A program made the position numbers and the translations under genes. Shown in pieces: positions 19,654-61,930 of a stretch of 64,000 nt of DNA. The stretch lies in the sequence record PX393110.1. One strand, written 5' to 3'. The notes under the pieces are model-generated. The model was not told the origin of the DNA. It saw only the letters and a program-made list of their open reading frames with translations, and ran no database searches. Source of the DNA: a phage. The stretch's first letter is position 1. Each line of letters starts with the position of its first letter.

Positions 19654-19660
19654 GTGACTT

Positions 19661-20038
19661 ATGTTCAAGATAGACTCAGACAAATTGGCTCAGAGATATG
19701 ATATCTCTAAATTCATGTCTAATGAGAATGGGTCTATCTTGGACTCTGTCGATTCTGAATTTATGTACAAACTGAAGAATCTTTCTCGGTATGGTACATA
19801 TACAGTGATCTCAGAAGTGGGTAGACCCGACCTCCTCTCAGAACGAATCTATGGTGCTGGATTGACTCAGTACTGGTGGATTCTTATGATGGTGAATGAG
19901 TTGCGGTTCCCATGGGACTTAACCATGAACTTAGTTCTGAGATATCCACTGATTGACGATCTGGAAGATATTTACTTCTCGCTAACTCCAGATGTGTCAT
20001 CTGTCTCCGCTACTGCTAAAGTGGAGAGCTTATCATGA
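19661..20038 (+). CDS. LysM-like tail protein (P2 gpX-like)
   Basis: 125 aa; size and position typical of tail protein X; family call is inference. Confidence 0.45.
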   Translation: MFKIDSDKLAQRYDISKFMSNENGSILDSVDSEFMYKLKNLSRYGTYTVISEVGRPDLLSERIYGAGLTQYWWILMMVNELRFPWDLTMNLVLRYPLIDDLEDIYFSLTPDVSSVSATAKVESLS

Positions 20039-21159
20039 TAGGTGTAAAAGGTCAATATGTTGCCATGTTCAAGATTGGCGACTTTAAAGACTTCATCGGC
20101 CCTAGAGATCTTATCCAGTTTAAGATCATCGAAGAGGCTGGTAACGTTATGCCTACATATGAGCTAGTTTTCGAGTGCCGAGATGAGCAAATAGTTTCGG
20201 TACTTAAGGAAGGTAACTTCATTTATGCTAGTTTCGGTCGTAACGAAGCCAGCATGATTAACGTTAAGTTAGCTATCCTAAAACGTCAGAAAACTAATTT
20301 CGGCGTAGGGTCTCAAATCCTCAGAGTCCTGGGAGTCTTCGGAGCTGTTCCGTACAGAATAGATTCCCAGGCAGCAAGTCATACTGGTACCTCGATAGAG
20401 GTAATGAAGTCTATAGTCTCTAAGTATTTTAAGGCTGACTTCAACTGCCCAGCATCTGATAACAAGATGAACTGGTTGCAGAATAACATTAACGATCGAG
20501 ATTTCGTTAACCAGTTATGGCTTCACAGTAATTTAAACTCCGATACGCCATTGGTGGGTATTACTACCGATGGTTTGTTTAGGGTCCGGTCTATCTCTAC
20601 AGCAGTGGACAGGAATAATCCTAACTGGAAGTTAACTTCCCTAGAGACCAAAGATGCTGGTGCTATCTATTATGACAAGCCACCTAACATCTATAGCGAT
20701 TCAGGGGCAGTAAATGCTCTTGGTGGCTATGCCAAATCCAGGATTGTTCACAATCAGAGCGACAATCAGTCGTTCTACTCCACTCCTCAGGGATCCCCTA
20801 TCCTATCAGTATCGAGTAATCAGGAAGTCTCGGATACGGGACGGCGTCTGGGAGGAGTGTCTATCCTTAATGAGAATGTACATTCTTCCTACCATTCGTC
20901 CTTCGATTACAACATCCGAAACCTCCTCCGATTATCCATGATGAAAGCTAAAGTCGAGATTACTGGGTATTATTTCAACATCCGAGTTCTCGATTCTGTA
21001 TTACTTAAAGAAGACTCCGATGCTCGTCGTAAGGAAGCCAACATGGATTCGTCAGGTCTTTGGCTAACCCAGAAGGTGTGCAGGATCTTCACTAATAAAG
21101 ACTTATGTACCGTCCTTACGTTGTGCAGAGATGGGATGAATAATTCCAGAGAGGTTTAA
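20035..21159 (+). CDS. putative baseplate hub protein
   Basis: 374 aa ORF; position between gpX-like and spike. Confidence 0.45.
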   Translation: MIGVKGQYVAMFKIGDFKDFIGPRDLIQFKIIEEAGNVMPTYELVFECRDEQIVSVLKEGNFIYASFGRNEASMINVKLAILKRQKTNFGVGSQILRVLGVFGAVPYRIDSQAASHTGTSIEVMKSIVSKYFKADFNCPASDNKMNWLQNNINDRDFVNQLWLHSNLNSDTPLVGITTDGLFRVRSISTAVDRNNPNWKLTSLETKDAGAIYYDKPPNIYSDSGAVNALGGYAKSRIVHNQSDNQSFYSTPQGSPILSVSSNQEVSDTGRRLGGVSILNENVHSSYHSSFDYNIRNLLRLSMMKAKVEITGYYFNIRVLDSVLLKEDSDARRKEANMDSSGLWLTQKVCRIFTNKDLCTVLTLCRDGMNNSREV

Positions 21160-21161
21160 GT

Positions 21162-21821
21162 ATGATAAATATGATAGACCTCATGCGCAATGGTCAGGAT
21201 CCTCTGAAGGCCATCCATAAGGGAGTAGTCGTTGATAATAACGATCCTGCCCAAAAGTGTAGAGTAAAGGTTAGGGTTCCTGGGGTACTCGATGGCGAGG
21301 GTATCCCATGGGCCATGCCTATTGCATCTGCATTCCTGGGGGATGGGGAATCTGACCGTGTGGAAATACCAGAAGTAGGTACCGAGGTATCTGTATCGTT
21401 CCCCACGGGAGATCAGCATTTCCCATTCTACACTGGGAGATGGCACTCTAAGGAAGTGCCAGAAGAGTTTAAAGAGAATTATCCTAACAGGTACGGATTT
21501 AAGGATTCTACCGGCACTGTATTCTATATAGATAAAGTGTCTAAGGAAGTTCATTTTAAGCACTGTTCTGGATTTCAGTTCGATATTGACCAAGAGGCTA
21601 ATTGGACTCTCACCACTCCAGGAGGAGGTAAGGTCGATATCGCTAAAGCTCTGGAGATAATCGCCAAAGAGCATATCAAACTGGATACTCCTCTTGTCGA
21701 TGGAACAGGAGAGATCAAGGACAAGGTTCGCAAGATGTCGGAAGATCGCGCTATCTACAACGGTCACGATCATGTTGGCGATAGTGGTGGTAGCACATCT
21801 CCGCCTAACTCTAAACAGTAG
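21162..21821 (+). CDS. baseplate central spike protein (gpV/gp5 OB-fold-like)
   Basis: GVVVDNNDP...RVKVRVPG...PEVGTEVSVSF motifs typical of gpV-family spikes. Confidence 0.65.
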   Translation: MINMIDLMRNGQDPLKAIHKGVVVDNNDPAQKCRVKVRVPGVLDGEGIPWAMPIASAFLGDGESDRVEIPEVGTEVSVSFPTGDQHFPFYTGRWHSKEVPEEFKENYPNRYGFKDSTGTVFYIDKVSKEVHFKHCSGFQFDIDQEANWTLTTPGGGKVDIAKALEIIAKEHIKLDTPLVDGTGEIKDKVRKMSEDRAIYNGHDHVGDSGGSTSPPNSKQ

Positions 21822-21825
21822 GTTC

Positions 21826-22197
21826 ATGATGGTTCAGCCAATTTATCGAGATATAGACCAGACTCTTAAGCGTAACTCGCTTAAGGATGGTGATGCAGTA
21901 TTTCAGTCCATAGTTAATGTACTGAAGACTCGCAAAGGTACCAGAATGTTTAATATGGAGTTTGGTTCTAATCTCGAAGATATCATCATGGAACCATGCG
22001 ACGATATAACTGGTCTGCAGGTTTACGCAGAGGTGGTCGACGCTGTTACGAGATGGGAGCCAAGAGCCCTGTTAGACAGAGGTAAAACTAAGGTTACTCC
22101 TGATCCGGATAATCACATATTCTGGGTAGACTTATGGTTCTCTGTTAAAGGAATCGATGGTCAAGAATTTAACTATGAGGTGGGTCTGAAACGATGA
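21826..22197 (+). CDS. baseplate wedge protein (gp25/gpW-like)
   Basis: ATG at 21826; 123 aa; size and position match gp25-like proteins. Confidence 0.6.
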   Translation: MMVQPIYRDIDQTLKRNSLKDGDAVFQSIVNVLKTRKGTRMFNMEFGSNLEDIIMEPCDDITGLQVYAEVVDAVTRWEPRALLDRGKTKVTPDPDNHIFWVDLWFSVKGIDGQEFNYEVGLKR

Positions 22198-23567
22198 ACA
22201 TAATTCAAGATTCCTCTCTATCCTTCGACCAGATCAGAACGGATTTAGAGAACTATATTAAGTCTCTGCCAGATTATGAGACTAAGTGGAAGGACTTCTA
22301 CGAAGCTGGTGCTGGTGAAACGGTACTTAATACTGGTGCTGGTATTACCGCATTCCTGGCCTATGCTGCCTATATGAACCGCCGAGATTCATTACTGGAT
22401 TTCGGCAACATGACTTCGACCATCGTGTCGATTGGTTCAGCATTAGGTTATGTATATAATCGTAAATCTGCTCCTCTTCTCCAGATTACGTTCACATCTA
22501 CGGAGCAAGTTTACTGGGATAAGGAAGATCCCATCGGTAACTACATGGGCCGCTCCATGGTTCTCACCAGCTCTACCCAAATAGAAGTCGGTGTGAATAC
22601 TATTGTAGTTGCTATCGGTGATTGGGTCTCTCAAGAGATAACCATCACAGATGCTAAGGATTTTAAAGGTATCAACGTACCTATCCAGCCTGATAACAAC
22701 CTGGTTAACCTGTATATTGATGGAGAGAAGATCTCCTACACTACAGCTGCTGAAGATATGGATTCGGATAATGTCCTAATTCGTTCTTACTTCTCGGGAA
22801 TATTCATTATCTTCGGGAACGGCGCACTGGGCAGGAAGGCTGCTGTTAACCAGGTACTTAAGATAGAGTACGTTGCTCCTGCTGATAAATTAGATGGGTT
22901 AACTCTGGATCCTACCAAGATTCAGTTATACGTTGAAAATACGAGTAACTCATCTGAAGTTAAATACCCTGGATCAGATCCTGATAGTCCTGAGAAAATC
23001 GTCGCTATTGCTCCTGGTTATTATTCAGCCAAGAGACGTCTGGTTACTCTGGACGATTACGCCTCGATAGGTGCTTCTTATCAGGGTGTGGTAAGTGCTA
23101 ACGCTGCTCTTCCGACTACTTCTTGCTGCTCGGTTAACGTCTCGTACCTACGAGCCGACGAATTAACCATGAATGATGCTATGAAGGCAGATTTCGAGAA
23201 GTACATGCTTCAGTACGCCATGTTGGGTTCTAATATAAATGTTATAGACCCTATCAGGATCATGGTCGATGTTAAGATGCGAGTGGTTATTGATTCCGGA
23301 GCTGATACGGACGCCATTACCAAGAAGATTCGCGAAACCATCAATAAAAAGTGCATGACTAGCGGTGCATTCTTTACGGTTAACGATATGACTCTGCCAG
23401 AGTCTCTTCGCGTTAGACGTATCTACATTAAGCAGCCTATTCTCGACAGACAGGCTAAGTACAATGAGTACTATAAGCTCCGCAAACTGGAGATAAGTTA
23501 TACGGAAGATCGAACTCTGGTAGATTCCGGAGGCACAGATAAGAATGCGGGGTATGAGTATGGCTAA
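22194..23567 (+). CDS. baseplate wedge protein (gpJ/gp6-like)
   Basis: 457 aa; follows gp25-like gene with overlapping start. Confidence 0.6.
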   Translation: MNIIQDSSLSFDQIRTDLENYIKSLPDYETKWKDFYEAGAGETVLNTGAGITAFLAYAAYMNRRDSLLDFGNMTSTIVSIGSALGYVYNRKSAPLLQITFTSTEQVYWDKEDPIGNYMGRSMVLTSSTQIEVGVNTIVVAIGDWVSQEITITDAKDFKGINVPIQPDNNLVNLYIDGEKISYTTAAEDMDSDNVLIRSYFSGIFIIFGNGALGRKAAVNQVLKIEYVAPADKLDGLTLDPTKIQLYVENTSNSSEVKYPGSDPDSPEKIVAIAPGYYSAKRRLVTLDDYASIGASYQGVVSANAALPTTSCCSVNVSYLRADELTMNDAMKADFEKYMLQYAMLGSNINVIDPIRIMVDVKMRVVIDSGADTDAITKKIRETINKKCMTSGAFFTVNDMTLPESLRVRRIYIKQPILDRQAKYNEYYKLRKLEISYTEDRTLVDSGGTDKNAGYEYG

Positions 23568-25038
23568 GTTCAACACTCTAGATTACTTCTCTCCTAACCT
23601 TAGAGGGAACGAGTTATATAAGTTCTTCTCGCAGGTGCTGGATCATGGTCTAGAGACTGTTGTCTTTCCGGAGATGGATAAAAATACGGCGATTTATGAT
23701 CCTAGTAAACCGTCGTATGATCCGATTTACATCCTGGAGCTACTGGGTCAACCAGACTTAGCAGATCTCATAACTACCGAGGTAGACCAGAACTCAGTAT
23801 CTGTACTCCTCCCAAGTATCCTAGATAATAAGGGTATGAAGGATGGGGTTGATCTTATCTTTAAACTGATAAATGTAGAGATAGACGAGATCCTGTATCA
23901 GAAGACTCCGGAAGGGTGCTCACTAGCAACCATCCTGCTTCCTAAGAACGTGATCTTGTCTACTCGACAAATTAAGCTAATTGATCGTCTGTCGCGTAAG
24001 GTATTTCCGATATGCGTCAGACTTACCGGTATCGCTAACTGTCTTCCAGATGGTGTTGAGTCTCTCGGAAGCGCCTCGCTGGACACCAGCTGGTTGTTGG
24101 ACACATCAATCCTGGATGGTTCGGTAGGTATACGAGTACCTGATATTTCAGATACTCTATGGTTAAGATTCTGTCTCGACATTATGTCAGAGATGGAAGT
24201 ACCTCTTGAAGTGCTGATTGATCGCTTCTCGGATCGTCTGATTAACTCTTATCTGACCGTATTCGACAGAAGAACTATCAGATTGGATAATGGTCTTATT
24301 CTGGACATGGGTACGTACTATGATCTCCAGAATACTGACACTACTCATAGCAGGCTTTATAGCTCATTAGCTGAGTTTAATGTCGATTTAAGCACCGACT
24401 CTAGAACTACCGAGATTGAGTCCTTACTGGACTTATCAGACCTGGTAGCTGGTCTGGAGTTTAAGTCCTCTATGCTGCGTGAGATCTTCCTATTCTTGGA
24501 TATCGACCTCTCAGAGTTCGGATTCGGGAATTACATGGATAGGAAGATAGAGCACTTATCCAAGGGGATAGAGCAAGTAAATTACGGCTATGAGGGTGGT
24601 AATTACGCTGATGGTTACGATTTAACTAACTATCAGAGTTTCGAATACGAGAACTTATACGTAATCCAATCTCATCATGATGGCCAAACTCAGCGTAGCG
24701 GGATGGCTTATTACGGATTGCCGGAAATAGACTGGCTACACTTCGAAGGTATGGACTTCATTAATGGGTCTTACCTGCTGGATGGTACTCGCTATCTTCA
24801 CCAGGAGTTCATTAAAAAGATCAAAGTGTACGATTGGTATACTCATTGGTCTAGCTACCGAGAAGCTATGTTCCTAACCACTCATAAGACCGAAAGACTC
24901 TTAGAGAAACGGGATGGGACTATTCTCCATGACGGAACTTATAATCGCGGTGAGAAAGTAACTCGTTACGGATTCGAACCTCTGTACAACGACGTTATTA
25001 GTCACGATGATACTTACTATCGCGATGCCAATCTATAG
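23560..25038 (+). CDS. baseplate/tail fiber attachment protein
   Basis: 492 aa; ATG at 23560 overlaps previous stop. Confidence 0.45.
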   Translation: MAKFNTLDYFSPNLRGNELYKFFSQVLDHGLETVVFPEMDKNTAIYDPSKPSYDPIYILELLGQPDLADLITTEVDQNSVSVLLPSILDNKGMKDGVDLIFKLINVEIDEILYQKTPEGCSLATILLPKNVILSTRQIKLIDRLSRKVFPICVRLTGIANCLPDGVESLGSASLDTSWLLDTSILDGSVGIRVPDISDTLWLRFCLDIMSEMEVPLEVLIDRFSDRLINSYLTVFDRRTIRLDNGLILDMGTYYDLQNTDTTHSRLYSSLAEFNVDLSTDSRTTEIESLLDLSDLVAGLEFKSSMLREIFLFLDIDLSEFGFGNYMDRKIEHLSKGIEQVNYGYEGGNYADGYDLTNYQSFEYENLYVIQSHHDGQTQRSGMAYYGLPEIDWLHFEGMDFINGSYLLDGTRYLHQEFIKKIKVYDWYTHWSSYREAMFLTTHKTERLLEKRDGTILHDGTYNRGEKVTRYGFEPLYNDVISHDDTYYRDANL

Positions 25039-25046
25039 GTGATTAG

Positions 25047-25814
25047 ATGAGCAATTATACTGGGGCATTTAACTTCCCTGCTCAGGTGTACCAATTTGAA
25101 GAGAGTGATGTGGTTAAAGGTGGTCCGGACGGCGTTGATAACGTGCCTCTTACCCAGCTTTCCGACCGTACGTTTTATCTTAAGGCTCTTGCAGATTTCA
25201 CATTCCTTAAGCTGTTCAATCTGAACCCTCTCGGATCATTCAAAGAAGGATTCCAGATTAACGTGGCTGGGTATGCAGTCTTCGACGAGGCCTCCGGTAA
25301 GTGGTTTAAGTGGACAGGATCTCTGCCTAAAGTGGTGGTTAAGTCTTCTAAGCCCGAAACTACTGGCGGTATCTATGATCCGGTCACTAATCCGAGCGGT
25401 AAGTGGGTGGCTATTGACTTCAGTGTTCTAGACCTTGGCGCTGGGGTTAAGATCCCTACAGCAGCTGCTCTTGGTAATCTGTATAGCGGTAAGTACAATC
25501 CTGCCTTCGTTAAGATTGAGAATGTCTCCAATCTGGACATAGCAGAAGCTACATATACCCGACTCGGGAATGTAGTTACTGTTAATGGCAAGATCACTGC
25601 TTCTGCTACTGATGCTGGAGAAGTAATGAAAATCGGAATTGGCTTACCTATTAACTCTACCTTCTCAGATGACTCAAGTCTCTCAGGAGTTGGTGTTGGT
25701 GTAGTAGCTGGTCAGATTTATGCCGATGTGGACAGTAGCGTGGCTGTTCTTGAGATTAATCAGGGTAGTACAGACGAGCTGTCTCTGAGATACACGTTCT
25801 CTTACACTGTATAA
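25047..25814 (+). CDS. short tail fiber-like protein with conserved N-terminal anchor module
   Basis: 255 aa; N-terminus shares the GGxDGxDNVP...L.DRT.YL motif with the next two tailspike genes. Confidence 0.55.
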   Translation: MSNYTGAFNFPAQVYQFEESDVVKGGPDGVDNVPLTQLSDRTFYLKALADFTFLKLFNLNPLGSFKEGFQINVAGYAVFDEASGKWFKWTGSLPKVVVKSSKPETTGGIYDPVTNPSGKWVAIDFSVLDLGAGVKIPTAAALGNLYSGKYNPAFVKIENVSNLDIAEATYTRLGNVVTVNGKITASATDAGEVMKIGIGLPINSTFSDDSSLSGVGVGVVAGQIYADVDSSVAVLEINQGSTDELSLRYTFSYTV

Positions 25815-25826
25815 TAGGATATCGAA

Positions 25827-28736
25827 ATGGGTGCTTATCAGGGTAAAAATCAGTACGTAGAGGACATCTATACCTTCGAACGTACTGACAAAGTGTCGGG
25901 TGGAGATGACGGTATTGATAACGTACCCATTAAGAATCTCACCGACAGAACTACATATCTCCGTAGTTTAGCATTGAATTCATTCCTGGATATCTATGGG
26001 GTTAATCCTGTAGGTACTTTCGGAATAGGGTTTGATCTTCAGGAATCTGGGGACGGAGTGTACGATGAGGTATCTGGCAAATGGTATTACTGGCTGGGCT
26101 CCTTCCCCAAATCTGTTGCCGAGAACTCATCTCCGGAAGATACTGGAGGTATTTTCGACCCAGAAAGTAATCCTGATGGGTTATGGACTGAGGTAATTCC
26201 GGTAAACCAGCGTCAGGTGGACATGATAGCTCGGGCATTCAGAGTTAAGACAGAGGAAGTCCAGTTCATGAAAGTAGGTCGTCCTCTCGACGGCTTTCGT
26301 GTACTGTATGACTTAACTTCTCAGGAAGCCTATCGTTTGCCGATGGATATTCCAGAAGGATCAACTGTCGTCAGTCTAACAGCTGGTGGATGGCTCGTAC
26401 ACAGCAATGGTGGGGTGGACTTATCTGCCTATGCTGTTGAATTAGAAGAGTACAAGCACTTTACTGGGGGAGACTTCAGTACTGGCTTTACTCTACGTCA
26501 GAACCACTGCGTAGTTATGTATGACGGTGTTATGTATCGCTGGGATGGGGATTTTCCTAAAACAGTAAATGACAACAGTACTCCCGAAGAAGATGGTATC
26601 GGTGAAGGTAAATGGGTGGCGGTGGGTCCAAATTCCAAATTGCTTTATAACATTACCTGGGATGGATCATATCCAGATCAACCAGTTATGGACGACCGCA
26701 CCCAGAGATTAAATCTACCACTACCGGTTCAAACTAATAAACTGGTGGATGACGTTGTACGTCTGCGCGAGACCATTTCAACTCTGGACGAGAAGGTGGC
26801 TACCGTTGGAAACGATGGTAAGATCCCGGTCGAGCAGATCCCAGCAGTAGCTATAACTGAAACATTTCCTGTCTCGAGCCAGGATGAGATGTTGGCTCTC
26901 AATGCCCAGAAGGGAGACATTGCCATCCGTGACGACAATAGCCTGAGCTACATTCTGATGAATGAGCCAGCTTCCACGTTGGAAAACTGGAAGAAGTTCA
27001 AGAATGACGCTCTGGTGCAGTTAGGTAAGAACGGCGGTGTGAATCTGGTTAGTGGAGCTATCCATGCAGCCACGGATCAGGATTCACTTACTTTCGAGAA
27101 CATAACAATTTCCGGTGAAGTATATAGTCACGACCCTAGCATATCTGGATTGGTTGAAGGATTCTCTGTCTATAACGGTAATTTATATCTCACTCGCAAT
27201 CAGATATCTTACAAGCTGTTGTCCAAAAGAAATAAGTTGCGCTGGCCTGGTCTGTACCTCTCTGGTGTAACTGATATGAAATCTTCGATTGAGGCCATTA
27301 TGAGCCATGGCCTCCACGTTGATCTTGATGGGAATGCTATCAGCGTATCTACCTTAAATATCACCAAAAATCTTTATAATGGTGAAATCATTGCTACTGG
27401 AGATACCGGCTCGTTCATTACTGTGAACTCGTGCAAGCTGCTTAGAACCAGGATCAACTGTAACAATAAGGCTATACGCCGTGCTGTGCATCTGAAAACT
27501 GGTTCAATCCGTCCTACTTTGAAAAACACTGAGATTTTTGACAGTTCCGGAGCTACTAATGCAAATGGTGTCTTTATTGACGCGAATAACATCACCGATT
27601 TCCTAGTAGAGGGCGTGTATGTCCATAATCTCACCTCTGTAGCTAATGGATCACAGGGAGATGCAGATGGTCCGTGCCGTGGGATTATCGTTGGCACGGC
27701 TCTTGACCCAGCGCCATCTGAGGCCACGGTATCTAGCGGAGAAATTAATAATGTACGTATCCGCGACTTGGCACCTTTCGAGGACTGCGATGGTGTTGTG
27801 GTTCAGATTTACGATGCCTCGTCTGTAATGCTTAGAGCATCTAAAATCCGCGTCAAAAACGTTGATACTCACAATGTCAGGAAGAGAGCCGTCAAGATTC
27901 AGGCGAACGATGTCACCGTGAGCAACGTCTATGCTTATTGCGATACAACCGATACAGCAATGTATTCAATCGTCAGTCTATATGGTGATAATGGGTATGC
28001 TGAGAATGTCACCGGACGAGGACGCATCAGTAATGGCATAGATTGCGCTTACGGCTTCAACAGAGTTAGCACACTTCACCTTAAAACCGAACGCACGGGT
28101 GCCGATACCCTTGCTGGGATTGGAGCAGGGTTGCTTATCAACTCCGGGCAAGTGGAAGCCAGTGGTATCTATTCCGAAGGTGCGGAATATGTTCTTGCTA
28201 TCAGGGATGCCCTTGGCGTGACACCTTACGTCAAAGTCTCTGGTCTTCGCGGGCAGGGTTACAGCGGAGTGGCTCGTTTCCAGATACGAGCCGGAAACTC
28301 TATCGGCAGCGTTTACATTGACGACGTTTCGGCAAATTCCTCGGCAACAAATAAATCGGCGATATCCGTAGACATAACGTCCAATGGAATAGGACTGGTA
28401 AATATCTCGGACGTGAAACGACTAAGTCAGCCATTCACCGGAGCAGACATTAATATGTCTGGGGCTGTCACGGAGGCAATTTTCCGCGATTGTATTCTAA
28501 ATTCTGGAAGCTCTACTGTTGGTATTTCCATGGCAACAGGAAAACTGACTGTTGAGAATATCAGTGCCCCTAGTAAGACGTATGCAGTTCAAGCTGTTCA
28601 GACGAGTAATTCATGGCTGAATAATATCGACGGAATAGTGCGTCTTGAGAATACGGCGAACACCAGACTTGGCCTCTATCGCGGAGTTTCTTCAGCTGGC
28701 ACAAACACTGGTCTTCTCACGTTGAATTATGCGTAA
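25827..28736 (+). CDS. tailspike protein 1 (beta-helix-type putative depolymerase)
   Basis: 969 aa; N-terminal anchor module; repetitive N/G/S/T-rich beta-strand segments in C-terminal half. Confidence 0.65.
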   Translation: MGAYQGKNQYVEDIYTFERTDKVSGGDDGIDNVPIKNLTDRTTYLRSLALNSFLDIYGVNPVGTFGIGFDLQESGDGVYDEVSGKWYYWLGSFPKSVAENSSPEDTGGIFDPESNPDGLWTEVIPVNQRQVDMIARAFRVKTEEVQFMKVGRPLDGFRVLYDLTSQEAYRLPMDIPEGSTVVSLTAGGWLVHSNGGVDLSAYAVELEEYKHFTGGDFSTGFTLRQNHCVVMYDGVMYRWDGDFPKTVNDNSTPEEDGIGEGKWVAVGPNSKLLYNITWDGSYPDQPVMDDRTQRLNLPLPVQTNKLVDDVVRLRETISTLDEKVATVGNDGKIPVEQIPAVAITETFPVSSQDEMLALNAQKGDIAIRDDNSLSYILMNEPASTLENWKKFKNDALVQLGKNGGVNLVSGAIHAATDQDSLTFENITISGEVYSHDPSISGLVEGFSVYNGNLYLTRNQISYKLLSKRNKLRWPGLYLSGVTDMKSSIEAIMSHGLHVDLDGNAISVSTLNITKNLYNGEIIATGDTGSFITVNSCKLLRTRINCNNKAIRRAVHLKTGSIRPTLKNTEIFDSSGATNANGVFIDANNITDFLVEGVYVHNLTSVANGSQGDADGPCRGIIVGTALDPAPSEATVSSGEINNVRIRDLAPFEDCDGVVVQIYDASSVMLRASKIRVKNVDTHNVRKRAVKIQANDVTVSNVYAYCDTTDTAMYSIVSLYGDNGYAENVTGRGRISNGIDCAYGFNRVSTLHLKTERTGADTLAGIGAGLLINSGQVEASGIYSEGAEYVLAIRDALGVTPYVKVSGLRGQGYSGVARFQIRAGNSIGSVYIDDVSANSSATNKSAISVDITSNGIGLVNISDVKRLSQPFTGADINMSGAVTEAIFRDCILNSGSSTVGISMATGKLTVENISAPSKTYAVQAVQTSNSWLNNIDGIVRLENTANTRLGLYRGVSSAGTNTGLLTLNYA

Positions 28737-28743
28737 CAGTGCC

Positions 28744-28761
28744 CCCGCTGCTTGGCGGGGT
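28744..28761 (+). terminator. GC-rich hairpin after tailspike 1 (no U-tract)
   Basis: CCCCGC-TGCTTG-GCGGGG stem-loop 8 nt after the stop codon. Confidence 0.3.
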
Positions 28762-28951
28762 CCCACCAACCGGAGGTCAACTACACTTATGAATAAGGTA
28801 TCCATAAAGTTTAGTAGCCTGATTTATGGCAGGTTCACGCTATCTACAAAAAGTGAAAATCATAGTCATAATGTAGGTGATTATGATTTTAACCAAGAGG
28901 AACTTACTCTCTGGTTTGGGAATTAGTATATAATATATTATAGGTGAATAA

Positions 28952-31936
28952 ATGTCTTATAATCCGATCTTAGAAGGATCAACCTGGCCGGAGACTATTC
29001 GTCGCTTAGAAAAGACGGATAGGGCGGAAGGTGGGCCACTAGTTACTAATTCTGAGGATGAACCAGTATCTGGACATATTAATCATCCAATAACTCAGTT
29101 AGCTACCAGAACTTCCATTTTAAAAAAGTATAATTTATCGATAATTAATAACACTAAAGAACAGTGGAAATTATTACTCGGTGACTTAGGACTAACTCTT
29201 GTTGGTACTTTTGAAGAAGGCGCTACTACTAACAGCAAGACTGATGCTGTTTGGCATATTGCTGGTGGTCAGTGTTACGTGTGGGGTGGTTTACTCCCTA
29301 AGACTGTATATGCTAACTCCACACCGCTAACTACTGGTGGTATCTCTGCTGATGCTTGGGTTAGTATTGGTGATGCCGCACTGCGAGGGCAAATATCAGA
29401 CCCGGACGGTGCGACAAAATACCCTGAATTGCAGATTGCTAGATGGCGTGACACTTTTGACCCTCGCGGTTGGGGAGCTAAAGGTGATGGATTAGTTGAT
29501 GATACTGTGGCTCTTAATAATCTGTTAAACGCTGCGCCAGTGGGTCAGAAAATTAATGGTAACGGTAGAACCTATAAAGTATCTGTGCTTCCAGATATTA
29601 GCCGATTCGTCAACACTCGTTTCGTTTATGAGCGTATTCCTGGCCAGACGCTTTATTATGTGTCTGACGAGTTTGTTCAGGGTGAGTTAATTAAAATAAC
29701 CGACACGCCTTATTACAATGCCTGGCCGCAGGATAAAGCGTTCGTTTACGACGATGTTATTTACTGTCCGTTCATGGCTAGCGATCGGCACGGGGTTAGC
29801 AGGCTGCATGTATCCTGGGTTCGCTCAGGTGATGACGGACAGACCTGGACGACCCCGGAGTGGCTAACCGACCTGCACCCTAATTACCCGACAGTTAACT
29901 ATCACTGTATGAGTATGGGTGTGATGCGCAACCGCCTATTTGCGATGATTGAAACCCGTACATTGGCATCTAACGCACTGGTGACTTGCGAGTTATGGGA
30001 TCGGCCCATGTCCCGTAACTACCATCCGACAGGTGGCATCACAAAAGCCGCCAACCAGCCTGTGGCTGTAATTACCATCCCTGAACACGGTCTTTTTGCT
30101 GGGGATTTTGTTAACTTCTCAAACTCTGGGGTGACTGGCGTTTCAGGGAATATGACTGTAACTTCAGTTATTGACCGCAACACGTTTACAGTTACCACGC
30201 CAAATCAACAAGCATTCGACCAAAATAACTCTACCAGCCGCTGGCATATGGGGACATCGTTCCATCAGTCACCATGGCGTAAAACCAGCCTTGGATTGAT
30301 CCCCATGGTTACCGAGGTTCACAGTTTTACCGCCATCAATAACGATTCATTCATGATGGGATATCACCAGGGTGATGTTGCTCCGCGTGAAGTCGGTATG
30401 TTGTATTTTCCGGATGCGTTCAACAATCCTGGGCTTTATCAGAAACGGCATATTCCTGCTGAATATGAGCCAGATGCGGCAGAACCCTGCGTTAAGTATT
30501 TTGACGGTGTTCTTTATGTTGTAACCCGTGGAACCAGGTCTGATCGTCTTGGTAGTTCTCTGCATCGCAGTAGCGACCTGGGGATTACCTGGCAATCACT
30601 GAGGTTTCCGAATAACGTCCACCACTCTACCCTGCCATTCGCTAAGGTAGGAAACGAACTGATTCTTTTCGGCACCGAACGCGCCGACAACGAGTGGGAA
30701 GCAAACGCACCGGATCAACGATATTTCAGTTCTTACCCACGGACGTTCTACACGAGAGTGAACCTCGACACCTGGAACCTGAATAATACTCAGTGGGTAA
30801 ATATCACTGATCAGATTTATCAGGGTGGTATTGTTAACTCTGGCGTCGGTGTCGGATCGGTCGTCGTGAAAGATAGTTATATCTATTACATGTTCGGTGG
30901 GGAAGACCATCTGAACCCATGGACATATGGAGATAACTTAGAGAAAGACCCATTCAAATCAGACGGTCATCCCTCAGATTTGTATTGTTACAAAATGCAG
31001 ATCGGTCCAGACAATCGTGTTTCTCGTGATTTCAGGTACGGTGCTGTACCTGACAGAGCGGTTCCAGTGTTTTTTGATACGAATGGAATTCGCACTGTTC
31101 CTGCGCCTATGGAGTTCACCGGTGATTTAGGGTTAGGTCATGTGACCATTAGAGCCAGCACCAGTAATAACGTTCGCTCTGAAGTTTTAATGGAAGGTGA
31201 GTATGGGTTTATTGGGAAATCTGTACCTACTAATAACCCAGCAGGACAGCGCACCATATTTTGCGGTGGCGAAGGAACCAGTTCTTCTACTGGTGCACAG
31301 ATTACGCTTTATGGTGCTAATAACACAGCTTCTCGCAGGATAGTTTACAACGGAGCTGAGCATCTGTTCCAGACTGCTGACGTTAAGCCTTATAACGATA
31401 ACGCGATTGCGCTCGGTGGGCCTAGCAACCGATTCACTACTGCATACCTCGGAAGCAACCCTATTGTTACTTCTAACGGGGAGAAGAAAACAGAGCCGGT
31501 ATTTTTTGACGATGCTTTTTTAGATGCTTGGGGCGACGTTCATTACATCATGTACCAGTGGTTGGATTCTGTACACTTGAAAGGAAATGACGCTAGAATT
31601 CATTTTGGCGTAATTGCTCAGCAGATCCGCGATGTATTCATTGCTCACGGTCTGATGGATGAGAATAGCACGGATTGCCGCTATGCCGTTCTGTGTTACG
31701 ACAAATATCCTCGCATGACAGACATGGTGTTCTCTCACAATGAAATCGTTGAACACACTGACGAGGAGGGTAATGTAACTACCACGGAAGAACCTGTATA
31801 CACCGAGGTGGTTATTCACGAAGAGGGTGAGGAGTGGGGTGTGCGGCCTGATGGAATTTTCTTTGCTGAGGCAGCATTCCAGAGAAGAAGACTGGAGAGA
31901 ATCGAAGCCAGACTTTCCGATCTTGAAAAGAAATAG
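28952..31936 (+). CDS. sialidase-like tailspike (endosialidase-like) with C-terminal intramolecular chaperone domain
   Basis: 994 aa; two Asp-box motifs (SGDDGQTW, SSDLGITW); GAKGDG motif; C-terminal S74-like chaperone region; distinct codon usage. Confidence 0.7.
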   Translation: MSYNPILEGSTWPETIRRLEKTDRAEGGPLVTNSEDEPVSGHINHPITQLATRTSILKKYNLSIINNTKEQWKLLLGDLGLTLVGTFEEGATTNSKTDAVWHIAGGQCYVWGGLLPKTVYANSTPLTTGGISADAWVSIGDAALRGQISDPDGATKYPELQIARWRDTFDPRGWGAKGDGLVDDTVALNNLLNAAPVGQKINGNGRTYKVSVLPDISRFVNTRFVYERIPGQTLYYVSDEFVQGELIKITDTPYYNAWPQDKAFVYDDVIYCPFMASDRHGVSRLHVSWVRSGDDGQTWTTPEWLTDLHPNYPTVNYHCMSMGVMRNRLFAMIETRTLASNALVTCELWDRPMSRNYHPTGGITKAANQPVAVITIPEHGLFAGDFVNFSNSGVTGVSGNMTVTSVIDRNTFTVTTPNQQAFDQNNSTSRWHMGTSFHQSPWRKTSLGLIPMVTEVHSFTAINNDSFMMGYHQGDVAPREVGMLYFPDAFNNPGLYQKRHIPAEYEPDAAEPCVKYFDGVLYVVTRGTRSDRLGSSLHRSSDLGITWQSLRFPNNVHHSTLPFAKVGNELILFGTERADNEWEANAPDQRYFSSYPRTFYTRVNLDTWNLNNTQWVNITDQIYQGGIVNSGVGVGSVVVKDSYIYYMFGGEDHLNPWTYGDNLEKDPFKSDGHPSDLYCYKMQIGPDNRVSRDFRYGAVPDRAVPVFFDTNGIRTVPAPMEFTGDLGLGHVTIRASTSNNVRSEVLMEGEYGFIGKSVPTNNPAGQRTIFCGGEGTSSSTGAQITLYGANNTASRRIVYNGAEHLFQTADVKPYNDNAIALGGPSNRFTTAYLGSNPIVTSNGEKKTEPVFFDDAFLDAWGDVHYIMYQWLDSVHLKGNDARIHFGVIAQQIRDVFIAHGLMDENSTDCRYAVLCYDKYPRMTDMVFSHNEIVEHTDEEGNVTTTEEPVYTEVVIHEEGEEWGVRPDGIFFAEAAFQRRRLERIEARLSDLEKK

Positions 31937-32056
31937 TAAATAAAGCTTTTTTACCGTAGGTAGGGGGGCTTCAATTTAAGATTTAACTTAAACCAATTAC
32001 CACTCTAAAGTTACTAAGTATTTGTACATCATGTAATATTTTTATGGAGATCACCA

Positions 32057-34678
32057 ATGGGCGGTCGTTCTAGGTTATTTAGCGAACTGGGCGGAGCTCC
32101 TCTTAATACTTATCAGCATGATAATCAGACTCTCGATATTCGCGAGTTAGAGAGTCAGCAGAAAGTATTAGACGAGACTCTTGCCGAAACAATCGGCGAT
32201 GTTAGCGAACTACAGCAGACTGCTGGACAGTCTATGTATATCCTCGGTAACTACGCTGCTGGAATGGTGATCGAGAACGACCGCCAGTACGTCAGACATG
32301 AGAATCTGCTGTACTACTGGACTGGTCCTGTACCGTTTACCACTACTGGTAACTTCTACGAAGAATCCTACTGGACTGGTGGGGTGCAGAGTGGTATCGA
32401 ATGGAGCTACGAAGTACAGGAAGATGGTGAGTTTGAGTTTGAAGTACCATACTCCTTCACCAGCGTACGCCTGTTCGTGGGTGGCGCTCGCCTTACTCGC
32501 GTAGAAGATTACACTATCGATGTGATTAATCGCAAGATCACTCTGACTAAGATTAAACTGTCGAAGGGCGTCCTGGTAACTGCCGAGCTGAATTCTCGTG
32601 ATGCTCTCAGCGTTACCCAGGATCGCATCGATAGCCTTACCAGAGAGATCTCAGAGAAAGTAGGCTTTGTTAACTACAAACTTACTGATCTGTCGGAAGG
32701 TCAGAGCCTTACCCTAACTACCAGAGTTCAGACTGTAAGCTTCTCACTAAATGGGGAGTATTACAAATGGGATGGTGTTCTTCCTAAAGTCGTTAACTAT
32801 GGAGATCCGGAACCAGCTCAATCTGAGCAGGGTACTGGTAAGTGGATTCCTGTAGGTTCTGGCGCCTTGAAATCAGAACTGGGCAAAGTCAGCGACACTA
32901 CTGGAGCGGTTCTTGTAGCTCTACCACAAGGCGGTAACGTGGCGAACGGTATTCGCTATGTAACTCCCGAAATGGCTGGTGCTAAAGGAGATGGTACCAC
33001 TGATGACACCACAGCCGTTCGTAACGTTGTAGCTCTCGCCAAATTAACTGGTCTTAAAATCACCGGTGGAGCGAACTATAAGATCTCGAATGCTTCAATC
33101 GATATCTCTGGTACTGTCATTGAGAACCTACGTCTTAAAGGAAGTGGGTCTAGCTCTATACTGCTAGTTAATGGCAATACTGCCATATCTAATCTAACCC
33201 TAAATAGGGTAGGTATTAGACACACTAACGGTATCTTAAACCTGGACAAATTTGAGATCAATGACTGTAGTGCTACTGCGGCTATTTTAAGCCTTCAGCT
33301 AACATCACCTGGACAAATATTTCTCACCAATGGTGTTATGCGTCGTTGTAATTACGGTTACCTTCGTCAGGGATCTCCAGCTTCTTCCCAGCCGCTGACT
33401 ACTTCATTACTTCGGAATTTACAATTCTTCGATATGAAGGGTGATCCAATCGAGATCAATCTGGCGATAGCTGATACCAACACTACTATCGATCAAATAA
33501 CCATAGATAACGTGGACTCCACAGCTACCGGGAATACTAACTGGGGTATTGCTATAGGCTTAGCTGGGATGGGTAACTACTCACCCACTGCCGCAGACTC
33601 AGAGTACATGTCTGATGTAACCATAAGTAATATTAAGATTACCGGAGCCAAACAGTGTCTGCACTTGGAGAAATGCAGAAACATTAGAATCAGAAATATC
33701 GACATACATCCGGATTCCACTAAGTCAACCGGAGTTGGGTTGGATACTGGTGGTTTCATAGCTTATGGATGTAAAGAGATATACGTGGATGGTGTAACTG
33801 GGTCTCCAACCAACGGAACGGAAGATATGATTCGTTTCGCTTGGGGATCTGTTAACAATGCGTTTACCTTCGCTCATCGAAATGTGCACTTAAGAAACGT
33901 CAATGTAACAGGTACTGTTAAAGTGGAGGTTAGCTGTTCTGATACCCTAGCTTCGACTGTAGAGATGAGAAATATCAATGCAACAACGATATCTCTCCAA
34001 GGCATGGCGTCTGAATACCAGCTGTCAGATTGGTCCGCTGAGAAGATGGTGTTGGATTTCAGATATGTTAGCGGAGATGCTAGAGATAATTACCGTAGAA
34101 ATGCGTGGTCAATTGCTACCATCAGTAATTTGAAATGCCTGAATTCTAACACTGGCGCTCCTGAGGTTACTGTACAGAACATCACTGTGGATACATTGGA
34201 AGTTTCTGGGTGTAACTTCCCTATCCAGAAGACTTTAACTGCTACCCATTGGAGAGGAACTCCTGCATGGCGGCAGAATGGTATTATTTACCACTCTAAG
34301 ACCGGAACTCCTTATGGCATGGCTCTTCTTGCTGGTGACACTATCGTTGCTAGTGACGGAACTATGTTCACGGTGACCTCCCCTGGAGCTCTGTTCTACT
34401 CAAACGAAACTGTTGCGGCCGCTACTGCTGGGTCTAACGCTATTCGTTCTAAAACTAACCTTAACTGGACTGGTCAGTATTATAAGACTGCTGGGTGTAA
34501 GGTTAAAATAGCAGGAGGTGGAGGTGCTGACGGCTCTGATTACATCGGTACTATTGTCCGCAGTGGTTATATTAACAGTGGTAATTACTACTTTGATGTT
34601 TACCCACCACTTCAGTCTAACGTACCTGATGGCGCAGTATTAACTTCCGTAGAAGTACCAGCCTTTAAAACAGTTTAA
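32057..34678 (+). CDS. tailspike protein (pectate-lyase-like beta-helix)
   Basis: 873 aa; GAKGDGTTDDTTAV motif typical of pectate_lyase_3-type tailspikes; internal YKWDGVLPK module. Confidence 0.65.
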   Translation: MGGRSRLFSELGGAPLNTYQHDNQTLDIRELESQQKVLDETLAETIGDVSELQQTAGQSMYILGNYAAGMVIENDRQYVRHENLLYYWTGPVPFTTTGNFYEESYWTGGVQSGIEWSYEVQEDGEFEFEVPYSFTSVRLFVGGARLTRVEDYTIDVINRKITLTKIKLSKGVLVTAELNSRDALSVTQDRIDSLTREISEKVGFVNYKLTDLSEGQSLTLTTRVQTVSFSLNGEYYKWDGVLPKVVNYGDPEPAQSEQGTGKWIPVGSGALKSELGKVSDTTGAVLVALPQGGNVANGIRYVTPEMAGAKGDGTTDDTTAVRNVVALAKLTGLKITGGANYKISNASIDISGTVIENLRLKGSGSSSILLVNGNTAISNLTLNRVGIRHTNGILNLDKFEINDCSATAAILSLQLTSPGQIFLTNGVMRRCNYGYLRQGSPASSQPLTTSLLRNLQFFDMKGDPIEINLAIADTNTTIDQITIDNVDSTATGNTNWGIAIGLAGMGNYSPTAADSEYMSDVTISNIKITGAKQCLHLEKCRNIRIRNIDIHPDSTKSTGVGLDTGGFIAYGCKEIYVDGVTGSPTNGTEDMIRFAWGSVNNAFTFAHRNVHLRNVNVTGTVKVEVSCSDTLASTVEMRNINATTISLQGMASEYQLSDWSAEKMVLDFRYVSGDARDNYRRNAWSIATISNLKCLNSNTGAPEVTVQNITVDTLEVSGCNFPIQKTLTATHWRGTPAWRQNGIIYHSKTGTPYGMALLAGDTIVASDGTMFTVTSPGALFYSNETVAAATAGSNAIRSKTNLNWTGQYYKTAGCKVKIAGGGGADGSDYIGTIVRSGYINSGNYYFDVYPPLQSNVPDGAVLTSVEVPAFKTV

Positions 34679-34702
34679 TAGATTAAACTGAGGAGATTAT
34701 TG

Positions 34703-36154
34703 ATGTCCACCCAATTGCCAGATAGTCTGCAGCCAAGCAGCCTTAAGTATAAAGGTGACTATGCGGCTGGTATTTACCTTAACGGAAACCACTGCATCCT
34801 TCGCTTTGTACGCACTGATGGTAAGAAGGTGTTGGTTAAGTGGGTGGGGGAAGTCCCCCACACCACCGACGGCGAGACTCCGTATACCGATACCGACCAA
34901 ACTACTCTTAAAGCTGGTTACGAGCTCTTCTCCCAGACGAATGCAGTAGACTTCATTATTTCAATGTTCAGTTCCTCCACATCCTGGCGCTATATCGGCC
35001 AGGTTAACTCTGTGGAAGATCTGAAGACTATCACTCCTAAGGATGGCGATCGAGTGATAGTTAAAGGCTACTTCGGGGAAGGTACTCCCGGAGGTGGTGA
35101 GTTCCGAGTTAAGACTACCAATGACTCTATTCCTTCGGACAGTAAGGATGTAGTCAATGGTTGGGTACGAGTTCGTCGTAGCAAGGAGTATCACGCTACC
35201 GAGTTTGGTGCTGTTCCTGATAAGTTAACTGACTCTACTGGTCAGGTTCAGGATATGCTCACTACTATCACCACTGGTCTGGCTATAATTGATCCTGGTG
35301 TTAAGTATACCCTAGCTAACTTAACTATCAAGCCTGGCGTCCAGATTCTGGATATGTCTGGATGGGACGGTAGTTCATGGACGGCTGCAGTGAGATTCAT
35401 CAGTAACTCTACTGATGGGTTGATAATCTCTTCTGCATCCAATGCTAACCTTAACCTCAACAGTAACAACGGGTTAGCCAGAGCTAAGGTATCTTACAGC
35501 GTAAGCGGAACTAAGATCTGGGAATCGGGTATGAGCGATGACTCTAACCGAGACTGGCATGTTCTTCGAGGATCTGAGTCTCGTTACCGTGTGGTATCTG
35601 CTTCCCAGGCTCACGCATGGAACAGAGATACCATAGTTGAAGGTGTCGATTACCACTACGGTAAGAGAGCATCTGAGAATCATGTTCTTCGCTACGATGC
35701 AGTGAGTACTGGCTATGATATCATTCATACCTATTACCACGGTACCACTCTCACCTCTAAGATAACCCATAAAGGCGATGGATCAGTAATCCTGACCCAG
35801 AATGGTAAGGATACCATCAAGATAGTAGATGGTGTAATGACTGGTGCCCTGAAGAAGATCATCACGTCTACAGCTAACGTAACTCTTACTGCAGCTGATA
35901 CTGGTGCTATTTGCACTACTGATGGTGCCACTTCTTCGGTTACCATTACCCTGCCAGTAGCTGTTCCTGGTATGACCTATGATGTACTCGTAGGTGCCAA
36001 CTACAGCGTATCAGTGAAAACTGGCGGTACAGATCTCTTCCGTAATGGGAACGCTACTGTTTCTAACTCGGATAAGGGATCCTGGTTACGCTTAGTTTGC
36101 GCTATCTCCGGTTACTGGGAGATGGATACTGTTCAGGGTACCTGGGCAAGTTAA
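34703..36154 (+). CDS. tail fiber/tailspike protein
   Basis: ATG at 34703 after GAGGAG RBS; 483 aa; beta-rich, anchor-like N-terminus. Confidence 0.55.
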   Translation: MSTQLPDSLQPSSLKYKGDYAAGIYLNGNHCILRFVRTDGKKVLVKWVGEVPHTTDGETPYTDTDQTTLKAGYELFSQTNAVDFIISMFSSSTSWRYIGQVNSVEDLKTITPKDGDRVIVKGYFGEGTPGGGEFRVKTTNDSIPSDSKDVVNGWVRVRRSKEYHATEFGAVPDKLTDSTGQVQDMLTTITTGLAIIDPGVKYTLANLTIKPGVQILDMSGWDGSSWTAAVRFISNSTDGLIISSASNANLNLNSNNGLARAKVSYSVSGTKIWESGMSDDSNRDWHVLRGSESRYRVVSASQAHAWNRDTIVEGVDYHYGKRASENHVLRYDAVSTGYDIIHTYYHGTTLTSKITHKGDGSVILTQNGKDTIKIVDGVMTGALKKIITSTANVTLTAADTGAICTTDGATSSVTITLPVAVPGMTYDVLVGANYSVSVKTGGTDLFRNGNATVSNSDKGSWLRLVCAISGYWEMDTVQGTWAS

Positions 36155-36170
36155 TTAAACGGAGACTACT

Positions 36171-36992: not shown

Positions 36993-37003
36993 CGGAGTAA
37001 TAA

Positions 37004-59290: not shown

Positions 59291-59305
59291 CGTTAAACTC
59301 CATAC

Positions 59306-59333
59306 GTAAAAATAAGGGAGACCGAAGTCTCCC
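59306..59333 (-). terminator. rho-independent terminator
   Basis: 7-bp stem GGGAGAC/GTCTCCC with CGAA loop; minus-sense U-tract TTATTTTTA. Confidence 0.7.
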
Positions 59334-59382
59334 TATGATTATTTTATTCTAGTAGATTACATGTACCAGTATCTAATAAGCA

Positions 59383-59649: not shown

Positions 59650-59664
59650 CCGAAGATGTCCTAT
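59641..59664 (-). promoter_or_regulatory. conserved intergenic stem-loop (ACATAGRGCACC family)
   Basis: 8-bp stem ATAGGACA/TGTCCTAT with 8-nt loop. Confidence 0.4.
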
Positions 59665-59670
59665 AGCTTA

Positions 59671-61868: not shown

Positions 61869-61898
61869 CTTTGTTATTCCTTACGGTTGGATTGACAC

Positions 61899-61930
61899 TT
61901 TAACAGCCTTTTAGCACCCTAAAAGAGCGG
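61899..61930 (-). promoter_or_regulatory. conserved promoter-like motif
   Basis: TTTAACAGCCTTTTAGCACCCTAAAAGAGCGG, 30 nt upstream of ligase start. Confidence 0.5.

Follow-up and report, generated by a model that had tools for sequence, protein, structure and literature searches.

The closest described counterparts of the locus analysed here are the tailspikes of the Ackermannviridae (CBA120 TSP1-4, Det7, Agtrevirus AV101 and Gloob), in which an exchangeable beta-helix body comes after tandem Tail_spike_N/XD domains. The genes for several spikes lie one after another beside the baseplate genes, and published work has located the recombination site of these tailspikes in the tandem repeats that precede the beta-helix (PMC10791037). 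The exchange of receptor-binding domains between tailspikes is already well established, and the tailspike described below adds an example, not a principle. Its parts also occur in two further groups of proteins. One comprises the tailspike gp064 of Aeromonas phage ST4 and a set of stand-alone tailspikes (P0027-P0044), which start with the motif MID..T.RL.LPLP and carry pectate-lyase-like, SGNH, GDPD or SASA bodies. The other comprises the tailspikes of P22-like Escherichia coli prophages (P0022 cluster, 117 members), the N-terminus of which is the P22 head-binding domain PF09008, used for attachment to a podovirus tail.

The window, a stretch of 64,000 nucleotides of phage DNA (record PX393110.1), encodes a protein of 969 amino acids, tailspike 1, that combines elements of these systems. 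We regard it as likely that this protein is a mosaic of an anchor and a captured complete tailspike, carried by a myovirus with multiple spikes that is related to the phages IME392 and EP_H11. The relevant features are:

25047..25814, plus strand: paralogue of the anchor, 255 aa, with one Tail_spike_N domain (Pfam; paralogy by tblastn)
25827..28736, plus strand: tailspike 1 gene, ATG start, 969 aa, four-module mosaic (ORF list and translation)
25827..26195, plus strand: module A, aa 1-123, anchor/attachment module typical of the phage lineage (identity to the 255-aa protein and to EP_H11)
26205..26627, plus strand: module B, aa 127-267, tandem Tail_spike_N (XD-type) domains, ending at the recombination junction (Pfam, phmmer)
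26618..28934, plus strand: exchanged cassette without counterpart in IME392, codons 265-969 and 198 nt of downstream spacer (blastn)
26628..26687, plus strand: linker of 20 aa, aa 268-287, GPNSKLLYNITWDGSYPDQPV
26688..27029, plus strand: module C, aa 288-401, neck/adapter that starts at the internal Met288 (BLASTP)
27030..28733, plus strand: module D, aa 402-969, right-handed parallel beta-helix, receptor-binding and probable depolymerase domain
28743..28760, plus strand: GC-rich hairpin CCCCGC-tgcttg-GCGGGG, 7 nt past the stop codon and within the exchanged block (read from the sequence)
28952..31936, plus strand: tailspike 2, an endosialidase with its own module junction near codon 133 (Pfam End_beta_propel, 677 bits, and related domains)

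The tailspike 1 reading frame is present as given in the preliminary description, and a look-up of the exact protein sequence retrieved no record elsewhere. Upstream of the gene lie baseplate genes (Phage_base_V and GPW_gp25 in the syntenic contig L005), and downstream follow the endosialidase, a WcaM-like spike and BW3TFN. The spike genes thereby form a cluster beside the baseplate genes, as is characteristic of Tail_spike_N tailspikes of branched complexes. Scans for promoters and terminators yielded numbers at or below those expected from shuffled sequences, and the hairpin behind the stop codon was missed by the terminator scan because it lacks a T-run. A megablast search with 22 kb retrieved only IME392 and EP_H11 as relatives of the backbone. 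Both are E. coli phages of 111-116 kb, the classification of which stops at Caudoviricetes. A literature search on EP_H11 returned nothing relevant on spikes. Genome relatedness to Ackermannviridae (Kuttervirus, Agtrevirus, Limestonevirus) was not found, so the phage does not belong to this family, and the likeness is limited to the spike modules.

The N-terminal part of tailspike 1 is typical of its own lineage. Module A is about 48% identical to residues 1-123 of the 255-aa protein encoded directly upstream and 46-50% identical to the N-terminus of a 780-aa protein of EP_H11. Module B matches PF18668 with 86.3 bits (cutoff 25) in two stretches, the last of which covers aa 208-267. In a phmmer search against the PDB it matched residues 21-218 of CBA120 TSP1 (4oj5, E=1.7e-30), and also TSP3 and TSP4 (E about 1e-26 to 1e-27). 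In five relatives, including IME392 and the metagenomic contigs L005-L007, modules A and B form a separate anchor protein of about 305-316 aa, and in IME392 and L005-L007 this is followed by fibre and chaperone genes. The protein identity of aa 1-266 is 93-95% to the anchors of IME392 (AXY86119, 305 aa), L005 and L006 and to P0110, and 90% to a further stand-alone homologue, P0111 (P0110/P0111, both metagenomic, 316 aa). These anchors occupy the same place as tailspike 1, behind the 255-aa paralogue, but they end in a short conserved, helical-looking tail (...SVENALTT...AFVNALLF), whereas tailspike 1 continues with the linker and a tailspike of 682 aa. A scan of IMG/VR with aa 1-266 of the anchor retrieved no relatives. 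An AF2 monomer model of aa 1-420, built on a shallow alignment, had a pLDDT of 48.9 and was unusable except for a small confident domain at aa ~340-395.

A blastn comparison of the window with IME392, the closest relative, revealed where the lineage-specific sequence ends. The identity is 95.2% at 20000..26617 and 88.7% at 28935..37842, with no match in between. At the site of this cassette IME392 has a 5085-bp stretch of genes for tail fibres and assembly chaperones. The left junction falls precisely where the tandem-repeat domain ends, as proposed for the recombination point in Ackermannviridae, and all spike positions in this phage group have a conserved N-terminus and a variable C-terminus. 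Sharp breakpoints together with the occurrence of the beta-helix module in unrelated backgrounds (see below) are the comparative hallmarks of horizontal acquisition. Therefore, the proposal of the preliminary description that the C-terminal receptor-binding part was gained by modular exchange is upheld, by homology and not by the codon argument from which it had been derived. The boundary proposed there, position 27250, has to be moved, because the beta-helix starts 220 nt upstream, at about 27030 (aa 402). In addition, the exchanged unit exceeds a C-terminal domain and resembles a full tailspike gene that brings an N-terminal module and a start codon of its own.

The evidence for the latter comes from module C. 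In BLASTP alignments residue 287 of tailspike 1 is matched with residues 1-3 of the 18 stand-alone tailspikes mentioned above, which are about 480-840 aa long, are 47-69% identical in this module and have varied C-terminal enzyme domains. Met288 aligns with their initiator methionine. Module C is 54% identical to the N-terminus of the ST4 tailspike, and it also has matches to PHROG minor-tail proteins. In ST4 gp064 and the stand-alone tailspikes this module is the true N-terminus, whereas it is internal in tailspike 1, where it is also followed by a different type of body. Judged from these alignments, Met288 is probably the vestigial start of a once-separate tailspike gene. Internal initiation at Met288 is unlikely, as the ATG is not preceded by a Shine-Dalgarno-like sequence. 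The linker has no match to the anchor tail of the relatives. An origin from the 5' region of stand-alone module C genes (ST4, L010) was rejected, because the linker has no similarity to their in-frame upstream sequence. P0010 was considered as a protein that contains both modules C and D, and was rejected because its C region is only 24% identical.

Module D forms the right-handed parallel beta-helix body at the C-terminus that is typical of tailspikes of branched complexes. It recurs, at 49-75% identity, in about 25 proteins whose N-termini are unrelated and include Tail_spike_N, T7 tail fibre and, in E. coli prophages, P22 head-binding domains. Carriers are prophages of E. coli, Enterobacter hormaechei and Citrobacter amalonaticus, Agtrevirus Gloob and a podovirus-like contig with an SU10-type portal. 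The best relative has 75% identity at the protein and 76% at the DNA level, and the C-terminal part of Gloob gp168 is 64% identical. The P22-like prophage tailspikes share the whole body at ~49% identity, unlike tailspike 1 behind a podovirus-type N-terminus, and at such divergence their specificity probably differs. Compared with the Ackermannviridae spikes, tailspike 1 has 123 lineage-specific residues at its N-terminus and an extra adapter (aa 288-401) between the XD domains and the beta-helix. Searches of Pfam, PHROGs and PDB sequences with the beta-helix returned nothing, and the family is rare, with 47 cluster representatives among 1.84 billion. An acidic cluster, E-D-C-D at aa 652-655 (FEDCDG), and other Asp residues are invariant in 22 homologues and are candidate catalytic residues; a solved homologue close enough for their assignment was not found. 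A Klebsiella K1 capsule depolymerase/lyase (9k4a, 7w1c) and the coliphage K5A lyase (2x3h) have a sequence identity of only 13-14%, at which neither the catalytic type (lyase or hydrolase) nor the substrate can be transferred to module D. We infer that the beta-helix recognises a surface polysaccharide, either O-antigen or capsule, which it probably also cleaves, and that it would thereby set one host specificity of the phage.

The codon usage of the gene is far less conspicuous than the homology breakpoints. According to the preliminary description the N-terminal part uses codons ending with A/T, whereas the C-terminal part is rich in GCG/ACG/TCG/CCG (NCG) codons. The N-terminal part is not richer in A/T-ending codons, since the fraction with A/T at the third position is 0.551 among codons 1-474 and 0.558 among codons 475-969. 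GC3 is 0.449 before and 0.442 after position 27250, compared with 0.461 in 43 other ORFs of the window, and no step in GC content or GC skew was seen at this position. For the NCG codons only the direction was described correctly, with an increase from 10 to 25 codons: their share of the four-fold degenerate Ala, Thr, Ser and Pro codons is 10/96 (10.4%) in the first and 25/126 (19.8%) in the second half (Fisher p=0.064; second half versus background, p=0.067). Both values are within the range of 38 other genes of the window (mean 13.9%, sd 5.3%, range 2.8-26.8%). The rise is partly due to amino acid composition, because the beta-helix half is richer in Ala, Thr and Ser (126 versus 96 of the four-fold codons, Pro included). 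A permutation test, in which synonymous codons were shuffled across positions with the same amino acid, did not reveal a significant change point at 27250 (codon 474, p=0.084) or at codon 398 (p=0.105), and the best split anywhere, codon 620, had a scan-wise p of ~0.05-0.10. At codon 264, the breakpoint set independently by homology, p was 0.007. Five control genes had p values of 0.19-0.89. The heterogeneity of codon usage is therefore mild, and what exists is located ~630 nt upstream of 27250. The neighbouring endosialidase gene served as positive control, and its known junction was recovered (best split at codon 135, p=0.015). GC3 of this gene rises from 0.293 in aa 1-133 to 0.458 in the remainder, and megablast matches to the endosialidase genes of K1-specific phages begin at about 29349. 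The pattern that the preliminary description had seen in both spikes is thus better developed in the endosialidase and weak in tailspike 1. In P0001, the closest homologue, NCG codons are also enriched in the D part (29/145 versus 4/65 in its own N-terminal part, p=0.013), and their share in the D part is 0.203 in Gloob and 0.183 in tailspike 1. NCG richness goes along with the beta-helix module; because GC3 is unchanged and the NCG share is within the background range, composition alone would not prove a foreign origin.

Chance and the amino acid composition of the beta-helix are indeed the main account of the codon impression. That they account for the gene as well, which would then have evolved in place and contain no foreign segment, is very improbable: the uniform GC3 and A/T-ending fraction and the unremarkable NCG share agree with it, but the nucleotide identity of 95% is abruptly lost at 26617 and homology returns at 28935, and the beta-helix occurs behind unrelated N-termini in other phage types. 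A joining of the anchor gene to the tailspike of another phage in the sample during sequencing or assembly is hardly credible. It would explain that the exact protein is recorded nowhere else and that the anchor is separate in all close relatives, but both junctions are clean and in frame, the right one is located just ahead of the ribosome-binding region of the next gene, and the parts are connected by a 20-aa linker without stop codons.

It is conceivable, though unlikely, that the fused tailspike is ancestral, and that the IME392-type relatives replaced the spike body by the fibre/chaperone cluster and truncated the anchor to a separate protein; the exchange would then have taken place in those relatives instead of in this phage. 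This phage is not alone in having a fused form, because the more distant EP_H11 has its fused 780-aa anchor-plus-receptor-binding protein at the same position, and a comparison of two states without a rooted tree gives no direction. However, Met288 aligns with residues 1-3 of many stand-alone tailspikes, which marks a gene captured as a whole, the fused protein has a redundant second adapter (module C), as would be expected after a fusion, and the stand-alone anchor with its conserved tail, ...AFVNALLF, is common to five relatives. Because the anchor is separate in these five relatives, tailspike 1 looks like an anchor fused to a captured whole tailspike. The chances seem about even that a free-standing tailspike gene was captured and joined, in frame, to a preceding branching adapter that is separate in all close relatives, turning a fibre-bearing into a spike-bearing baseplate position. 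A distant blastn search of phages and of 5,426 E. coli genomes with the cassette as query retrieved only partial matches of 65-67% and no near-identical donor DNA, and for this reason we infer both the exchange event and its direction.

For the mosaic of anchor and captured tailspike the following course can be envisaged. The first 267 residues, anchor and tandem Tail_spike_N domains, would hold the protein in a branched spike complex at the baseplate. From Met288 onward the protein would represent a complete tailspike, consisting of neck/adapter (aa 288-401) and a presumably trimeric right-handed beta-helix (aa 402-969), from a pool of receptor-binding proteins shared by enterobacterial phages. 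The 2.3 kb cassette (26618..28934) occupies the site of the 5 kb tail-fibre/chaperone cluster of the nearest relatives. The acquisition may not be recent, or the donor may be unsampled, because the best relative of the beta-helix has only the moderate protein and DNA identities given above; in either case the codon usage would mostly have been adjusted to that of the phage, with a faint NCG excess left.

If true, the capture of a whole gene would be more than the swap of a C-terminal domain. Codon bias read by eye is a poor detector of old module swaps, for which homology breakpoints are decisive. The exact junctions at 26617, 26688 and 27030 might guide the engineering of chimeric spikes in a little-studied lineage of phages that target the K1 capsule. 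The small beta-helix family, which lies outside Pfam and PHROGs, is common to phages and prophages of E. coli, Shigella, Enterobacter and Citrobacter, and its glycan specificity may be worth determining.

The window (GC content 45.6%) holds the structural region of the phage, followed by replication genes on the opposite strand; no tRNA genes were found in it. The baseplate genes are followed by a series of large spike genes, of which tailspike 1 (25827..28736, plus strand, 969 aa) comes first. Two E. coli phages were the only DNA relatives in a set of 50,697 phage records: vB_EcoM_IME392 (116 kb; 92% identity across 89% of a 22 kb query) and EP_H11 (111 kb; 43% coverage of the 22 kb query). 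Judged by these relatives, the phage is not a member of the Ackermannviridae. IME392 appears in the reference list of one paper as a "genetically unique" myovirus (PMC12210895).

In a blastn comparison, the window and IME392 are 95.2% identical over 20000..26617 and 88.7% identical from 28935 onward, with no match between. The unmatched block (26618..28934) comprises 2,317 bp, and the counterpart position in IME392 5,085 bp, which encode tail-fibre and tail-fibre-assembly proteins. The left breakpoint lies at aa 264-267, where the second Tail_spike_N (PF18668) domain ends, and the Tail_spike_N region matches residues 21-156 of the solved CBA120 TSP1 (4oj5, E=1.7e-30). Its position corresponds to the tandem-repeat region that has been proposed as the site of recombination of receptor-binding domains (RBDs) in tsp genes of Kuttervirus and Agtrevirus (PMC10791037). 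The preliminary description had suggested from codon usage that the C-terminal receptor-binding part was swapped at 27250. The exchange of this part is supported, by homology and not by codons, and the junctions lie at 26617, 26688 and 27030 instead. The gene can be divided as follows:

25827-26195, plus strand: module A, anchor (aa 1-123), a paralogue (about 48% identity) of the N-terminal part of the 255-aa protein encoded upstream (25047..25814) and of the 780-aa protein of EP_H11
26205-26627, plus strand: module B, tandem Tail_spike_N (aa 127-267), Pfam PF18668, CBA120 TSP1
26628-26687, plus strand: linker (aa 268-287) of no recognisable origin
26688-27029, plus strand: module C, neck or adapter (aa 288-401), with an internal Met start, homologous to N-termini of stand-alone tailspikes
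27030-28733, plus strand: module D, beta-helix (aa 402-969), shared at 49-75% identity with about 25 proteins whose N-termini are unrelated

The paralogy of the 255-aa protein and module A suggests a duplicated anchor in a branching scaffold; in EP_H11 a single 780-aa protein bears the module A-type N-terminus. Module C begins MDDRTQRLNLPLPVQTN. From aa 287 of the query it pairs with 18 stand-alone tailspikes (P0027-P0044, 47-69% identity) starting at their residues 1-3, and Met288 pairs with their initiator Met. The C-terminal bodies of these proteins are diverse (pectate-lyase-like, SGNH, GDPD, SASA). Aeromonas phage ST4 has a tailspike whose N-terminus is 54% identical to module C. Module D had no sequence-level match in Pfam, PHROGs or PDB, and its family is small: of 1.84 billion cluster representatives, 47 match at E≤1e-3 and 11 at E≤1e-30. 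Its relatives carry Tail_spike_N, T7 tail-fibre (PF03906) or P22 head-binding (PF09008) N-termini, and include E. coli P22-like prophages (a cluster of 117 members), prophages of Enterobacter hormaechei and Citrobacter amalonaticus, gp168 of the Shigella Agtrevirus Gloob (aa 441-1002, 64% identical) and a protein on a podovirus-like contig with an SU10-type portal.

Codon usage was compared between codons 1-474 and 475-969, i.e., on both sides of 27250. The proposed preference for A/T-ending codons in the N-terminal part is not borne out, because the third-position A/T fraction (0.551 vs 0.558) and GC3 (0.449 vs 0.442; 0.461 across 43 further ORFs in the window) are nearly equal in the halves. 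The described richness of the last ~1.5 kb in GCG, ACG, TCG and CCG (NCG) codons holds as a count, which rises from 10 to 25, but Ala, Thr and Ser are also more frequent there, the NCG share of the four-fold Ala, Thr, Ser and Pro codons increases only from 10.4% to 19.8% (Fisher p=0.064), and both halves lie within the variation among genes in the window (13.9% ± 5.3%, range 2.8-26.8%). When synonymous codons were shuffled among positions with the same amino acid, no significant change point was found at codon 474 (p=0.084), at codon 398 (p=0.105) or at the best split anywhere (codon 620, scan-wise p about 0.05-0.10), while the split at the homology breakpoint, codon 264, gave p=0.007. The method has power, because it detected the junction already known in the adjacent endosialidase gene (codon 135, p=0.015) and five control genes yielded p=0.19-0.89. 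The heterogeneity at codon 264 is mostly due to Thr (ACG 0 vs 11, ACC 2 vs 17), Arg (CGC 1 vs 12) and Leu (CTT 1 vs 17) codons. Codon heterogeneity in tailspike 1 is thus faint but real.

IME392 and three metagenomic relatives (L005-L007) have a separate anchor protein of 305-316 aa, and an additional stand-alone homologue (P0111) has 316 aa. The C-termini of the stand-alone anchors share a short tail (...SVENALTT...AFVNALLF), and the next genes encode fibres and chaperones. In tailspike 1 a linker and a complete tailspike, which retains its own N-terminal module and start codon, replace the anchor tail. The simplest reading is that a whole tailspike gene was captured and fused in frame behind the anchor, with loss of the fibre cluster; we infer that this phage was the recipient. 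The more distant EP_H11 contains an anchor-plus-RBD fusion protein of 780 aa. No donor with near-identical DNA was found, and the event does not appear to be recent, because the closest module D relative has 75% protein and 76% DNA identity (over 1.2 kb); its age would explain why the composition is nearly adjusted to the phage. The NCG fraction is also high in module D of Gloob (0.203; window 0.183) and in that of the homologue P0001 (0.200 vs 0.062 in its own N-terminal part, p=0.013), and thus NCG richness belongs to this branch of the family. Therefore, the faint codon signal, not significant alone, plausibly remains from the ancestry of the module.

Residues 388-969 were modelled with AlphaFold2 from 22 homologues with high confidence (pLDDT 89.3, pTM 0.87), and the model has beta strands throughout; CBA120 TSP2 and HK620 tailspikes were top-ranked by Foldseek. 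The predicted fold of module D, a right-handed parallel beta-helix, is established, but substrate and chemistry cannot be transferred, because sequence identity to all structural matches is 7-15%. The acidic cluster FEDCDG (aa 650-655), invariant in 22/22 homologues, is a candidate active site. By analogy to well-studied tailspikes, module D should form a trimer, which would bind and cleave O-antigen or capsule and bring the baseplate to the outer membrane.

The stop codon of tailspike 1 is directly followed by a GC hairpin with a perfect 6-bp stem (CCCCGC/GCGGGG, 6-nt loop, 28743..28760), which lies inside the exchanged block and lacks a T-run. Tailspike 2 (28952..31936) is a full endosialidase (K1 capsule; Pfam hits including one of 677 bits) with N-terminal extension, beta-propeller, beta-barrel, stalk and S74 chaperone. 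The gene contains a genuine junction in composition (GC3 0.293 for aa 1-133, then 0.458; change point at codon 135), and DNA homology to K1-specific phages starts at about 29349 (YX22 and UE-S5a 87-88%, K1F 78%); the whole gene is also present in IME392 (96.5% aa). The bodies at this position differ in L005 (795 aa, pectate-lyase-like) and L006 (678 aa). Tailspike 3 (32057..34678; 873 aa) is WcaM-like (PF27800 in the L005 homologue, 18212..20833), its homologue in IME392 is annotated as colanic-acid-degrading, and at this position, in contrast to positions 1 and 2, about 82% aa identity is kept in IME392 and L005. Given the endosialidase and the WcaM-like spike, the specificity of the phage appears to extend to several glycans. 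Fibre and chaperone sets (CBM_4_9-like fibre, Phage_tail_APC chaperones) differ among the related loci L005 (10961..17692), L006 (10961..17425) and L001 (16098..20642). By sequence comparison, everything between the anchor and the WcaM-like spike forms an array of variable cassettes. Downstream, a 273-aa BW3TFN (baseplate wedge tail-fibre network) protein (36171..36992) and a 1014-aa DUF4815 protein (37004..40048) are probably a fixed part of the host-recognition apparatus, because both are conserved in IME392 and EP_H11. A 973-aa protein (16097..19018) with a Glyco_hydro_19 (chitinase/lysozyme-like) domain (aa 750-849) is probably the tape-measure or a tail-associated lysin; its EP_H11 homologue is annotated as murein transglycosylase. 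The replication and repair arm (55897..62706, minus strand) includes:

56517..57485, minus strand: GT1-like glycosyltransferase
58583..59290, minus strand: DUF7217
59925..61868, minus strand: NAD-dependent DNA ligase
61933..62706, minus strand: small Pol-beta/X-family-like protein with HHH_8 and thumb domains

IME392 is among the phages with a YerA41-like DNA polymerase that were examined for thymidine hypermodification genes (PMC12686479), and therefore modified DNA may be worth checking in this lineage.

Tailspike 1 has the tested features of tailspikes of the Tail_spike_N type in branched multi-spike complexes, and probably works like them. Each spike position in the phage group combines a conserved N-terminus with a variable C-terminus, a combination described as standard for Ackermannviridae and Klebsiella phages. 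Tailspike 1 therefore exemplifies the usual modularity of tailspikes, in a phage lineage that has received little study. Its less common feature is the apparent capture of a whole gene, which would have left a redundant internal adapter module.
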